Shown in pieces: positions 9,930 through 53,600 of a stretch of DNA of 64,000 nt. The translations under genes and the position numbers were made by a program. The notes under the pieces were generated by a model that had not been told where the DNA came from, ran no database searches, and saw only the letters and a program-made list of their open reading frames with translations. Numbering within the stretch: position 1 is the stretch's first letter; the number at the start of each line of letters is the position of its first letter. This DNA is from Perkinsus olseni (taxonomy: Eukaryota), in the NCBI GenBank assembly GCA_013115125.1, contig JABANN010000126.1:1-64000 (forward strand), given 5' to 3'.

Positions 9930-12900
9930 CTGAGGGTCAGCAAACTAAACTGATCCCCCAATAGAAAGGTAGATCGGTGTTGGTTTAACTAAGTCGTACT
10001 GTCAGCGTTGGACTTCAAACTCACACACACGGGCAATCGAGTTCTGTGGCTTACCAAAGACATTCTCGTTCGGCCCCTGATGCGCTCGGCTGCAGTGTGA
10101 GCCATTTCCTCGAGGAGCTCCACCTGACAGGACGCAGCGCCAGGGAGACGATGAACGAGGGTAACCCACTAGATTTCGAAGTTCCTCGACTCTACGCCTC
10201 ATCGAAGCCACGACCCGCTGTTGTTTATAGGACTCCACTCGAGCCTTCTCGATCCTTGACAGAATCTCGAAAAGAATAACTTATCATCCAAGATTTTTCC
10301 GAAGCAGTTAATCAGAGTTTAAAGTACTTTCCCAAAAACAGTCAGAAAAATATCCGCGGTTATGGTCAGTGACGATAGAGGAGTCCTGTGAGTTGTTTCG
10401 TTCGGGGAACTTTCGCCCCTCGGTCCACCAGAACTCCCCAAGCGCTGTATGGTAGATGATATGATCCGTATAATTCGTACCATACGAGACGAGCAGCGAG
10501 CCACTCGTGGCAACAGCCCTTAACGGCCAAGCCGACAATACGTTATTTCCCTGTGCCCTTAAGCTGAGTCGCTTCGCTGTTGAGCGGTGGTGTTCCGTTT
10601 TCCCTAGACTAAAGAAGTTGTAAGCCCAATGCGAACCGAGCTCACTCTCTCCCATTGAGACTAATAAGTCGTCCATCGAACGACTGTGTGATTGGCCTAC
10701 GTTTGTTGTTGCAGCTGAACTACTGTCATTAACACGCCACAGAGGGATGAACTCAGCGGACTCGATTGACATGTTACGACACACTACCACAGTCCCCCTC
10801 CCGACCACTGTACTGAACTCAACGTTAATGATGATGAAAATGGAGAAATGAATAGCTGCATTCAGATCCATGCACGACGGAGCAGTTGCATAACAAGGAT
10901 AATATCGTCAGGTCGTCATCAACCGCCCGAAGTTGCCACAGCGTGGAACTGCTCCAGTCGTCGGAAACAAACTCGAAAGGCCTGAGGGCATCACTGACGC
11001 CCCTCATCTTTCTTTCTCTAATACCGGAATCTTGTCGATTCTTGATCGGGTAGTGGCCGCTGCTACGGCCAAGGCGCTGGCCAAAGTCTCGGACGCGTCG
11101 GAGTACTTCTCGCAGAGAGCCTTCAAGTCGAAGGGCGGCAGCACAGCAGCTCTTCTCTGACAGGCGAGAATCAACAGCCCCGACCAAAACGAGCTCACCC
11201 TCTCCTTAATTTCAGTCTGTGCAACCGTCCGAAGCATATCCAAGGTCACCGCGCGGTCAACACAAGTGAGCTCTTCGCCGTCCAGAGCAGAATCCTCACC
11301 GAGTAGGTAGGGTCTTGCCCATCGCCAACACGACGCCGTACTGCAGCAAAACCGATGCTGACAGACGGAAAGCTCTCAGCCTTACCTAATCACTTCAGGC
11401 GCCAATCGGACGAAGGGGACCACGGCTCTTCCTGTAGGGTTCTTCCCGAGCTTTTCAGGGCCGGGATTCCCGTCCGAGCCTCGAAACGGTGAGTAGGTCT
11501 CGATGAAGGCCTTCAGAGACGGCCAAGCTCGCACCTTCCCGCCGAAACAACTGCGCGGCACAGCAGCAATCAGGCGGTTACCACTTCTTCGGAGTTGTTA
11601 TTGATAACGTCATCAGCGAGGATATGCTTCGACACGATCCTGGCTATCGAGTCCTGCAGTTTCGGACAGGCCGAGTTGTCCCATAGCAACCACCACAGCC
11701 GTAAAGGCTCGCTCATGAATGGGGACCTGCCGGACGACGCTGAGCACTCCCTGTCCGTGAGATTGTGTCGGTCTCTACTGTATGTGCCAGTTTAATAAGC
11801 GAATGGCCCTCTGCGCATCTACTGCGTGTGATAGAGTTTATTGATGAATCATACTTCAGAAAAAAAGCAATGAAAACACAATGAGAGAGTTCCAATCGAC
11901 CAGCCGCCCTGATGTCGATACATTACACGATATGTATTGCATGAGCGAAGCTATTCTGAATTCATAATTTCTGGGTTGACCTGGGGACTGAAGACTGCGT
12001 GGAAGCTGCTGTTTCCACGGCCTTCCCAAACCTACGCGATTTGACTACCTACTATGCTGTGAACTGAGAAGGGGAAATGTCTTGGTTACAGAAGGAAAAG
12101 CTATGCTCGGAGATCTTCGATATAAATACTCCGCTATAGTATTCGTCTTCATTGAATGAAGACGATAACATAAAGAGGCGATAGGATCTCTTATGCCGTT
12201 GTTCGCGCTTGTCCCTTTGCGTGTAGACAGAGAGCCAGACTCGCTTTCCTTATCATCTCGTCTGCTGGTCGTGGCATTCCAAGTGGTCATAACAGTAAAG
12301 ATGAGCCCACCATCAGAAGCGCCTATGATCTGCGCTGCCATCCCACAGCGGCGGTCGGAATTAGTAAAAAACTATAGCAGTAATAATAATTGGCCGATCA
12401 GAACAGCCGTAACAGCGTCGTTGCTCACTCCTCAGATGCCATCTCCTCATCATTATCAAACAACACCTCCAGGAGCCGTCCAGCGGCGTTCTGGACCCTC
12501 ACGGTGGCGTCGTAGCAGCAGTCCAGCAGCATCGAGCACCACTCGTCACGGGTCTCCTCCGAGAAAAGGGCCACTCCAGAATCTTCCACGACCGTAGCCA
12601 TCGCGGTGAGACCAGCGGCTCTCACGGCTGACTCCGGATCTGAGGAGATTGCGACGCTTCTGAGGTCGAAGGAGGTGAAACACGGGTGCATAAGATACGT
12701 TTAGGGGCCCTACCGTTCTGGAGGCACTCGAACAACGCCCTTCTCGCCGCCTCACGCTGTGTTTCAGGAAGGACCTGTTAGAGGATTTAATGATGGCGTC
12801 ACGGAGAGTCGAACATGGGTCGGCACCACGTTATGTACGTAGACTAACGAACTGGACTGAGGAACTGCCTTCCAACTCCGTTCCTCACCTCAACCGAAAG

Positions 12901-50600: not shown

Positions 50601-53600
50601 AATTTCAACAGGATATAGACGTTACGATCAAACAGCAGGTTTAAGTCGCTTCTAGCTGTAGTATAAATCGGTCGGTTCTATTGCAGTGAACGCTCCTCGT
50701 CAATGTCCCACTGAGAATTAATCTAGTGTAATCCTGAAATTGACAACAGTTGTCAATTTTTGAATCTGAGGTTGGTATGCCAGCCACAGGTAAGGCCCAA
50801 AGATACGAACGTCACTTGGCAACACGCATGTATCCCCAAACTTGACGAATCTAGTATCGGAGCATGAGAGCCGACGGCACCCCTCTGCAGTAGTAGTACT
50901 TCTGGGGCCATCGTCTTGGGTGTCCTACACAGTGTACCTGGGTGAGCCAAAAAATTTGCCGATAGTGATACTTTTCTATGGATTGTAACCGCCAGCCGAT
51001 CATCACCGTTCACCACTCGGCTGATTCCGAGATCGCGAACTTCGCAACCGTCCTCGATGCATCCAACGAAACCTGGAGAGGTTCGGCGCGAGAGAAAGGC
51101 CACATTGTTTCAACTACTAAAAGTACAAAATCCTCTGTAACAAAGAGTACTTTACTCTCGGGTTTGAAACGCCTGCGGACGATTCCTTTGCCATACATGT
51201 ATGCTATTGCGCAAAGACACTGCCGGGAAAAATGGCGCCCACATCTAAATACCTGCCCGAATCATCACCCCGCCGTCGGCTTGATGGCGCTTGGATCGGC
51301 TCAGAAGGGTGGTAGCATCCTAAAGACACCCACGGGCCCATCCGTCTGGGCCGTCAAGCGTGGCTCGTGACCCGTCAGTCCACCGAACCTTCGAGCCATC
51401 AAGTCCGCCTTCATGTCATGCTTGGCTCATTGCACCCTCTTCTCCTCATGGTACTTGGGGCTCAATTCTTGGGCAATGAAAGCCTGGGGTTGGCTTCCAT
51501 GACCTTTCCTATGCTCTTCAGCACCTTGCACGTACTTATGCTTTTGTAGCGAAAGTTTTGCTCCCTTTACCCACCCCTGCCGCATCCAGCAACCCCTCAT
51601 TGGTGGCTGGAGGAGCTCTGGCAGTCCCCCTCTTGGGTTTCCTCTTCCCTTGCGGCGTAACGCTTTTCTCATACTACCCACCCCTCCTCTCGAAGACCTA
51701 GGAAGAGTCCTCCAGGTACTACACAATAGTACAGTGCTCCTTTCCGTGCCATTTTGCTACTTCGAAGCTCTCAGCCTCTTCAGCGAACCTCTTGACTACG
51801 ACAGGCTGTCGTCGACAGCTTTCTCGGTGTCGCTGATCACTGATTTTTGTGGCATACGGGATATATACGTGTGGTCCGGAATGTCTGGAACCTGCACGGT
51901 TCGAGGGGGCCAATTTTTCGCTCGCCCAGATATATCAGTAACCGTTTCGGATATGACCATTCTGACTCAACATGCGATGGCTCGTGATGATAGCTATGCC
52001 CTGCGAATGTTTCCGCTTAAATCCATGCTGTCGAGAAATGAAAAATATGCGCATCTTGCCTAGGAAAAATGCACGCTCCTTATTGCTGAGTAGGGTCATC
52101 GGAATCTTTGTTAATGATGGTATAAGTCACACAGTGGAAGCCTTTCCATTAGGCGGCGATCGAGTCCTTCGTGAGGGCGGGTGCGCCTCGGGAGGCCCTG
52201 GACGTCATGTGCGACTCCCAGATGTGGGAGGCAGCTAAGGGATTGGCCACCACTGTCGACCAACGCCGTCTTCCCATGATACATCGTCAAGTTGCAATGG
52301 TAGGCGTTTGAGCTGGGTATGCTGTTGACCGCGGGGCTTAGGGTCTGGAAGATAAGGGAGACTACGAAGGGGCTCTGGCGAGTTATAAGGAGGCGATAGG
52401 GGAGGTGGATGAGTCGAGGGTTGAGGATTCGGCGGAGCATTTTCGAGCTTGCAACGCTGGACTTGCCAGGTGATGCTTCTGCTGGGAGCAGGGTCTCAGT
52501 TCTGTACTATCCTTGTGGCTGCATTGATTGCACTTGGCAGATAGTCGCGTGTGCACCAGAGTAGCTCATAGGCTGTCTACCTCACGGGATTTCGGCCCAG
52601 CCGCCCATCTATGAGGGAGCAACAACTAAAACATACCCACTTACCTTATGCGCGCATCGACACTCACAGCGTGTGCTTAAATAGTTGCGTTCTCCGGCCC
52701 TTGTGTTAGCATTGGATGTGTCGATCGTCGGCTGTAGCTATGCGATCATCATCATCATCATCATTATCCGTCGCCCGGCCTTTGACGAATCATCCTCGAT
52801 GTGATGCGGTAATCCCCTTCTGTAGGTGTCTGTGCTATTGTGGCATGTATGAACCGGCGGCTAGGCTATGCAAGAGGATCGCTAAGGAAGATATTCTGAT
52901 CGAGTGCGCGGGTATACTGGAGAGGATGAAGCAATATTCGCTAGCTGGGAGGTCATTTCGTGCGATGACAGGTGCCGGGTTCGAACCTGGGCCATTTAGG
53001 TTGCATCAGCGCCTTGGTAATTTAGAACGAGCGTGTAGTCTTTACATTCAGGACATGGACTTCGATGCTGCGAAGCCGTTGATGGACCAGGTATCTTTCC
53101 TCTCTGTGTAGAACCAGCATCAACCTTGGATACTGATGCAGGTATCAACTCCAAAATTACATCTACTCTATGCGAAGGCTAAGGAAGCGCGAGGCTTCTT
53201 TAAAGAAGCTGCAGCAAGCTACGAGAAAAGCGGCGACATGGAGTCTATCGTCAGACTGCTGGTCGATGAAAGTCACCTGAATGACCCGCGGAAGGCAATG
53301 GACTTGATAAGGAAAGGTAGGCGAAGTTTCGGCTCGTTCGATTCGGTCTACCAACTGTTAGAGGGAGCACGAAAGACGCGGAGATAGTTGGTCCATGGGC
53401 CCTATCTCGTTGTAGGGGGTGTAGTTGTAGAACGGAACGTAAGTAGATTGGGCTCATAGTGAACGGGGTAGAGCGAGGAGTACTAGAGAGAACCGGAGTT
53501 AATGACGGGACGCTAGTATGACGAAGCTAGTGAACACACATTTCAGTTGAGTTATGGAAACAGCGCACGTTTTATCTCTGGAACCGGACTCTTTTCATTC

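Follow-up and report, generated by a model that had tools for sequence, protein, structure and literature searches.

The window analysed here comprises 64,000 nucleotides (nt) of Perkinsus olseni DNA (contig JABANN010000126.1, positions 1 to 64,000, forward strand) and is intron-dense eukaryotic DNA. On the plus strand between 44.6 and 56.6 kb lies a large gene, WDR19/IFT144, whose exon query matches a 586-residue P. olseni protein with ~95% identity over the matched parts; this protein is labelled by its source 'WD repeat-containing protein 19, partial [Perkinsus olseni]', and the WDR19 orthologue P0015 has the WDR19 propeller domains. A second gene, with orthologues in P. olseni and P. marinus, contains an intron in which an intact transfer RNA (tRNA) gene is located. 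In addition, seven introns of the window harbor sequences resembling the 3′ part of a tRNA, which we call relics; they are listed here together with the intact gene.

20857–20929, minus strand: intact gene for tRNA-Lys(CTT) in antisense orientation with respect to its host gene, called by ARAGORN and over its full length by the Rfam tRNA model (64.7 bits, threshold 29).
20846–20960, plus strand: host intron of tRNA-Lys, 115 nt, GTAATA...TTCAG; its splicing restores a long reading frame.
17099–17142, minus strand: relic intron of 44 nt; sense relic of ~30 nt with T-arm, acceptor 3′ strand (CAGACGC), A and TTTT.
17208–17279, minus strand: relic intron of 72 nt; sense relic from the anticodon-loop region to the acceptor end, followed by TTTT.
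45190–45241, plus strand: relic intron of 52 nt in the WDR19/IFT144 gene; sense relic with variable loop, decayed T-arm, acceptor TAGAGGC, A and TTATT.
15670–15719, minus strand: relic intron of 50 nt; antisense relic, tRNA sense on the plus strand at 15679–15713.
21904–21948, plus strand: relic intron of 45 nt, in frame and stop-free; probable antisense relic with acceptor CGGAGGC, A and TTT.
22406–22667, plus strand: relic intron of 262 nt; antisense relic at 22410–22449, whose tRNA 3′ end and the 5′ splice site GTAATAA are 7 nt apart.
52952–52999, plus strand: relic intron of 48 nt in the WDR19/IFT144 gene, in frame and stop-free; near-palindromic T-arm relic of ambiguous orientation.

A first-pass annotation of this DNA had claimed that tRNA pieces fill several GT–AG introns. 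We examined this claim with a tRNA profile that is independent of the sites themselves. From 119 viral loci ARAGORN extracted 642 tRNAs, of which 300 class-I phage tRNAs were used; tRNAs matching the seed pattern were excluded from the training set in order to avoid circularity, and 78 tRNAs were held out. A search of the window by nhmmer with this profile recovered the intact tRNA-Lys with 37 bits and, in addition, eight partial matches of at least 7 bits:

17110–17135, minus strand: 11.5 bits (E 0.016), intron 17099–17142.
15679–15706, plus strand: 9.1 bits, intron 15670–15719.
52970–53003, minus strand: 9.0 bits, intron 52952–52999 (4.1 bits on the plus strand).
22420–22445, minus strand: 8.7 bits, intron 22406–22667.
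9228–9276, plus strand: 8.2 bits.
63660–63691, plus strand: 8.1 bits.
17234–17265, minus strand: 7.8 bits, intron 17208–17279 (profile positions 27–58).
45195–45219, plus strand: 7.0 bits, intron 45190–45241.

Six of the eight matches are contained in introns. In 150 block-wise dinucleotide shuffles matches of this strength occurred with a mean of 0.36 and a maximum of 3, so that the eight observed matches represent a ~22-fold excess (Poisson p ~5e-9). The B-box is enriched over shuffled sequence as well: the motif GGTTCGANYC occurs 8 times against 1.22 expected and none of 100 shuffles reaches this number, the count including the intact tRNA and one palindrome counted on both strands. That the resemblance is due to chance is therefore very improbable and is refuted for the whole set, especially as the similarity also reaches the variable loop, the acceptor strand and the T-run; chance holds only for the weak sites, among them 12775, 35685 and 36705. 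In the range of 3 to 7 bits the number of matches (6) does not stand out from chance (~4.9 expected), and the sites 36847, 40806, 6641, 21915 and 36702 in this range are individually indistinguishable from chance. The B-box motif with one mismatch allowed (22 against 15.15 expected) was uninformative, and a loose regular expression for the T-arm yielded mostly noise. Neither ARAGORN nor the Rfam tRNA model called any relic as a tRNA gene, and an Rfam search of the whole window with E values up to 10 gave no partial tRNA match, as did a search of the slice 21890–22500. The partial-tRNA signal is real for the set as a whole and not for every listed site.

The individual introns are supported by different kinds of evidence. 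Introns 17099–17142 and 17208–17279 were called by reading frame and domain logic only: both are flanked by exons encoding two B-box zinc-finger units, and the unspliced frame stops at once. Within the first intron the Rfam models tmRNA and mascRNA, which have a tRNA-like T-arm, match 17117–17134 (search of the slice 17090–17290); a metagenome scan for the end of this relic found none. The second relic shares a 14-nt exact match with the tRNA-Lys of the window and is the only one with such a match. A further intron at 16967–17012 (minus strand), in the second B-box unit, has about the same position in its finger as 17208–17279 in the first unit, both lying before the second Cys pair of the respective finger and only a few residues apart; its end, ...AAATTCGACCTCGGCATCTTTTCAG, resembles a more decayed relic and is detected by neither profile. 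In the WDR19/IFT144 gene the intron 45190–45241 agrees with the frame logic, and the alignments of the distant WDR19 orthologues P0015, P0101 and P0104 are unbroken across it, whereas for 52952–52999 the P. olseni WDR19 models P0001 and P0113 lack exactly its 16 residues. These four pieces are borne out as they had been described.

For the three antisense pieces the outcome is mixed. At 15670–15719 the relic is confirmed, with 6 nt between its tRNA 3′ end and the 5′ splice site, while the intron was called by frame continuity only. On the contrary, the intron 21904–21948 is well established, as its 15 residues are missing from the orthologues of P. olseni and P. marinus, and it is the relic that is only probable: it scores 3.8 bits, yet 23 of 27 bases are identical to the 15670 relic. 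The piece at 22406 is a relic, but not in a short intron as had been assumed, for the P. olseni model P0115 resumes at 22668–22770 and the AG is found at 22666–22667, giving 262 nt. Towards the other end of this intron (22640–22667), ~15 nt before the 3′ splice site, there is a sense GGTTCGACC word with no tRNA-profile score. Altogether the supported relics are distributed over three genes, perhaps four, and not over at least five as first proposed.

Three introns, namely 21904–21948 (45 nt), 52952–52999 (48 nt) and ~22049–22201 (~153 nt), are multiples of three without an in-frame stop; they appear coding by frame alone and their removal is visible only via orthologues. Introns of this kind (45, 48 nt) are easily misread as coding sequence, which is of practical relevance for annotation.

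When aligned in tRNA orientation the relics have the consensus AAAGGTCCCGGGTTCGATCCCnGG....GGCATTTT and consist, in this order, of variable loop, T-arm, acceptor 3′ strand, discriminator and a mostly T-rich trailer. The bases after the discriminator are TTTT, TTTT, TTAT, TTTG, TTAT, ACTT and TCGC in the relics, the last two being the ones that are not T-rich, and TTCA in the live tRNA-Lys. A CCA end is not encoded in any of the eight sequences (relics and tRNA-Lys), and no relic has a 5′ partner for the acceptor strand. As both are missing, no relic can be a working tRNA. The 11-nt B-box GGTTCGANNCC is perfect in four relics and one base off in two, amid stems and acceptor strands that have decayed. 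In the introns of 44–52 nt the relics occupy 60–70% of the length. Three relics are in sense, three relics and the tRNA-Lys in antisense orientation and one is ambiguous, in agreement with the earlier statement that the pieces face both ways. The discriminator is always found 6–14 nt from an intron edge, close to the 3′ splice site in sense relics (10, 12 and 9 nt before it) and close to the 5′ splice site in antisense relics (6, 10 and 7 nt past it; 11 nt for the live tRNA-Lys).

Seven of the eight partial matches correspond to the 3′ part of a tRNA. With the held-out tRNAs, however, 55 of 78 3′ halves were found by the profile and only 30 of 78 5′ halves; since 3′ halves are easier to detect, the bias is not significant (p = 0.16).

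The intact gene gives a hint how the relics may have originated. The first-pass annotation was right in placing an intact tRNA-Lys in the intron 20846–20960: the P. marinus orthologue P0116 runs unbroken across it from residue 167 to 168, and a full cloverleaf with anticodon exists only at 20857–20929. The contig depth of the bin containing the gene is ~18-fold in the DNA runs X8 and X9, which indicates that this tRNA-Lys is multi-copy. Subtracting the 73-nt tRNA from the 115-nt intron leaves 42 nt with the donor GTAATA, a CTAAT and a pyrimidine run before CAG, read by eye, and this remainder is a normal-looking ordinary intron. The donor GTAATA is uncommon and was seen in three introns (20846, 22406 and, on the minus strand, 16878); in two of the three it is the reverse complement of the tRNA 3′ trailer (TTATTAC).

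We suggest, with a probability of about one half, that the relics are dead, 5′-shortened copies of tRNA genes in spliceosomal introns that existed before, and that they were kept where the introns are minimal. According to this reading tRNA gene copies, presumably abundant and short-lived in the genus, would land in existing introns, the starting state being represented by the tRNA-Lys intron with its 42 + 73 nt. The copy would die and deletions would shrink the intron toward a minimum of 43–50 nt. As most of the deletable sequence was tRNA, the surviving spacer would be mostly tRNA-derived, and at minimal length further deletion would be selected against, so that the relic would stay until substitutions erase it. 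More speculatively, the trailer could be reused as splice-site context, in sense orientation as pyrimidine and branch region ahead of the AG and in antisense orientation as an A-rich GTAA.. donor. The sizes of the introns can be read as a series of 115 nt (live gene), 72 nt and 44–52 nt. Both relic orientations are present and therefore fit an insertion at the DNA level. The first-pass annotation had offered three explanations, and of these the turnover and decay of tRNA genes within introns fits best, given the 42 + 73 nt intron and the gene-type ends of the relics.

The opposite order of events has been considered too: pieces of tRNA genes, or complementary DNA (cDNA) of the 3′ parts of unprocessed pre-tRNAs with their U-tail, would have been inserted into exons, for example as filler in break repair or by target-primed reverse transcription, and would have survived as introns only where a nearby GT and AG allowed splicing. 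The large fraction of the small introns which is occupied by the relics, the location of five of the six strong relics in short introns and the two orientations are in line with such an origin. In addition, the 3′ end is always kept while the 5′ part is lost at differing points, as in 5′-truncated retrocopies, and T-rich trailers without CCA would suit primary transcripts. On the other hand, target-site duplications should mark such insertions; the best direct repeats at the relic introns have 4–6 nt and are no more than in six control introns. Long introns and intergenic DNA should be littered with the same pieces as well, where at most two matches lie, and the intron of tRNA-Lys has the appearance of a normal one of 42 nt into which a tRNA was inserted. 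The protein models of P. olseni and P. marinus leave out two of the relic introns. Furthermore, DNA contigs of a ~95% identical relative are colinear with the window at 16436–17393 (no gaps) and 21774–22538 (7 gaps); the relic introns of these stretches are thus present in the relative at about the same length, so that no recent gain was caught. The non-significant 3′-part bias does not help this proposal either. Capture of tRNA pieces as the origin of the introns, another of the three explanations offered before, is regarded by us as unlikely. The best reading is that tRNA copies landed and decayed in existing introns, which fits better than tRNA pieces creating introns.

For a comparison with the introns of the window in general we listed 38 introns from contig joints and orthologue mappings. 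Some of the boundaries are approximate and long contig skips could hide very small exons. Contigs from the runs X7 (by guess RNA) and X10 were used only for joints across GT–AG stretches; 15 of 45 joints were used, none of them over the genes A or B, B being the host of tRNA-Lys. These contigs join across, among others, 12775–12888 and six other short introns of 43–54 nt. Of 7 known short introns our own gene finder detected 3 at best, and it was not used for intron calls. The list divides into 19 short introns of 42–115 nt (1053 nt in total) and 19 long introns of 146–1730 nt (7596 nt in total). tRNA sequence is found in 3 of the 19 checked short introns, that is in 52952 (strong relic), in 21904 (probable relic) and in the intron with the live tRNA-Lys. 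This is a sizeable share of the smallest introns, and in each the tRNA 3′ end is beside a splice site.

Several points weigh against decay in existing introns. Five of the six strong intronic relics are in introns of 44–72 nt, although short introns make up 12% of the intron DNA (p = 1.4e-4 per base); with introns instead of bases as the unit, the excess does not reach significance (p = 0.11). Under uniform insertion and neutral decay the lifetime of a relic in a short intron would have to exceed that in a long one by tens of times. The 44-nt intron with its 30-nt relic has only ~15 nt of older intron left, which requires two or more deletions, or else an insertion at a fortunate point. The relic of the 262-nt intron is still found right beside the donor, for which we estimate a chance of ~6% under random placement, and this hints at insertion targeted near splice sites. 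The predominance of 3′ parts, although not significant given the detection power, belongs here as well. Finally, we did not find any intermediate linking a live and a dead full-length tRNA; the 114-nt intron at 12775, considered as one, failed. The short-intron excess per base and the donor-adjacent relic are not easily explained by decay. Both would follow if insertion was aimed at A/T-rich sequence adjacent to splice sites or if it founded introns.

This leads to a further, tentative proposal, which we consider rather doubtful: 3′ parts of tRNAs, from T-arm to trailer, were inserted preferentially beside splice sites and rebuilt or founded roughly a tenth of the minimal introns, the source probably being unprocessed pre-tRNA or the tRNA genes themselves. 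In the sense orientation the T-run would merge with the pyrimidine tract before the AG and in the antisense orientation the A-run with a GTAA.. donor. If this were true, tRNA genes would be a recurrent source of intron sequence by a route distinct from transposon-type introners.

We also asked whether the relics could be diverged copies of one old tRNA-derived mobile family, that is a short interspersed element (SINE) or an introner. The relics 15670, 21904 and 45190 are alike in T-arm type and have the acceptor end AGGCA in common, and judged by these bases they may derive from a single tRNA species; 15670 and 21904, with their 23 of 27 identical bases, also have the same layout, but those bases belong to the tRNA part itself. 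The remaining relics have different acceptor strands (CAGACGC, CCCGTCC and AGCCGTC). Outside the tRNA part the relics share no body, their 5′ ends differ and their orientation to the splice sites is mixed. A 5′ tRNA head as expected for a SINE is missing, as an A-box-like pattern matches only once in the window against 2.02 expected. A profile trained on the relics detected no further copy in the 64 kb, its high scores at the training sites being circular, and the contig depth over the relic introns is ordinary in the DNA runs. Nor do the intron ends show the target-site duplications of an introner, their direct repeats being no longer than those of the control introns. Moreover, the Dada transposons of P. 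marinus cut in the A-box and not in the T-arm, according to the sections on them in PMC3706591. A single mobile family is therefore improbable, and the earlier verdict that the pieces are not one SINE family stands for the relics with different acceptor strands and is weakened by the three with a common end.

An equally improbable alternative is that the relics are retained for a function, either the B-box of dead tRNA genes as a binding site for TFIIIC or chromatin proteins or the T-arm hairpin as an aid in splicing tiny introns. The well-preserved B-box amid decayed stems and the relic density, which is far higher in short introns than in other non-coding DNA, are what this idea would lead one to expect. 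However, the detection hinges on the T-loop, so that to some extent the search itself selects for an intact one. Structure beyond the level of shuffles was not seen in the 12 checked short introns that lack a strong relic (mean z +0.23), which argues against a general need of a hairpin in short introns. In yeast the extra TFIIIC (ETC) sites, or chromosome-organizing clamps, are isolated B-boxes without a working tRNA gene; they are mainly intergenic and are conserved as binding sites. Going by the letters, the relics of the window would have only the B-box motif in common with them.

Some further sites in the window resemble tRNAs to a lesser degree or are located outside introns.

12775–12888, minus strand: real intron of 114 nt, joined across by X7 and X10 contigs; the claimed tRNA piece is unsupported.
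36842–36879, plus strand: weak T-arm-like piece AGGTCCCGGGTTCGATCC, 4.5 bits in the nhmmer search, at chance level and a candidate only.
9228–9276, plus strand: tRNA-like 5′-to-middle part (profile positions 6–53), the only candidate for a 5′-part relic.
63660–63691, plus strand: T-arm-like match; 3 of 5 pairs of the T-stem form by reading.

The intron at 12775 had been given as 12775–12848 with a tRNA piece; the intron is real and longer, and the piece scores 0.5 bits in the nhmmer search, with no tRNA-like match in an Rfam search of a 136-nt slice. Its interpretation as a full-length decayed tRNA-Met was rejected on the same grounds. Likewise we dropped the piece at ~35685 (−0.2 bits) and the one at 36705 (3.1 bits). 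Around 36855 as many as 221 different intron pairs keep the frame open, and the reading frames leave the gene structure unsettled. Judged by the translations, 9228–9276 apparently lies outside introns, upstream of the possible start of a plus-strand gene. The match at 63660–63691 also appears to be outside introns and may be plain coding sequence (..DEDEFDT..).

The window also contains the following open frame:

57409–58701, minus strand: open frame of 430 residues for a subtilase (Peptidase_S8); the protein-atlas cluster closest to it is Perkinsozoan subtilisin.

This frame is overlapped by the exon mapped last in one P. olseni WDR19 model (57421–57525, plus strand), and this final exon of the model may be wrong. 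Consecutive WDR19/IFT144 exons of the P. olseni model are separated by ~1730 nt at 50423–52152, by far the longest intron here. A metagenome scan for WDR19 relatives found none, and protein searches with two large open frames of the window as queries gave no match. Runs of exactly 98 N at 26480–26577 and 39356–39453 are scaffold gaps or masked stretches. At 27361–27413, within the stretch 27253–27611 skipped by contigs, dozens of X8, X9 and X10 contigs break on both sides of ~40–53 nt. The contig depth in this bin is 6–7 times the usual one, pointing to a short element in high copy number, in which the hairpin GTCCAAC...GTTGGAC is found and which has no meaningful match in Rfam.

The origin of new or renewed spliceosomal intron sequence is an old open question, and the well-documented sources are transposon-like introners and occasionally organelle DNA. 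If the observations made here were true genome-wide, Perkinsus would allow a direct test of whether amplified genes that RNA polymerase III (Pol III) transcribes feed intron sequence. With the genomes already available for several species one could likewise ask whether splice sites are the target of insertion and whether inserted DNA is shielded from deletion by a minimal length of the intron. We found no description of minimal spliceosomal introns consisting largely of tRNA 3′ relics in the literature, supplements not being covered.

The raw material for the relics should be plentiful, as tRNA genes are amplified in the same genus. The parts of Kojima & Jurka 2013 (PMC3706591) considered here report for P. 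marinus more than 500 copies of five tRNA types, with 349 near-identical copies of tRNA-Leu, 116 of tRNA-Gly, 46 and 9 of tRNA-Ile and 23 of tRNA-Tyr, and describe Dada transposons which target tRNA genes. These elements of 4.7–11 kb insert at the A-box and duplicate the target TAGCTC. In contrast, the relics of the window are T-arms and acceptor ends in introns of 44–262 nt without any transposon sequence. The sections of the same paper on P. marinus tRNAs and Dada make no mention of introns holding tRNA pieces.

The closest parallel to the favoured reading, decay of tRNA copies in existing introns, comes from Caenorhabditis, for which the relevant part of Wang & Ruvinsky 2012 (PMC3342880) describes intron-nested tRNA genes that die fast while the family persists. 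In both cases a Pol III tRNA gene is located wholly within an intron of a protein-coding gene. Unlike the Caenorhabditis genes as described there, the host introns in the window are near-minimal, and the dead copies comprise the 3′ third of a tRNA and make up most of the intron. A fast turnover is stated for tRNA genes and pseudogenes across eukaryotes in the part of PMC2888827 that bears on it. Human nuclear introns contain tRNA-like sequences derived from mitochondrial tRNAs which are reported, in the portion of PMC7722341 used here, to affect splicing. In that case the sequences resemble mitochondrial tRNAs over their full length and the introns are long, whereas the window has 3′ fragments of nuclear type in tiny introns.

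Introners, which are known in related alveolates such as Amoebophrya (PMC7789003, as far as that text was drawn on), resemble the relics in that entire introns are made up of short inserted DNA. In the main text of Gozashti et al. 2022 (PMC9860276), in so far as it was covered, the words 'tRNA', 'SINE' and 'Perkinsus' do not occur. The introners described there form repeated families with terminal repeats and target duplications; the relic introns, on the contrary, have neither repeats nor duplications, come from several source tRNA types and are low in copy number. Nested tRNA genes, tRNA pseudogenes and the amplification of tRNA genes in Perkinsus are already known, and what appears to be new here are minimal introns that consist mostly of a tRNA 3′ relic.

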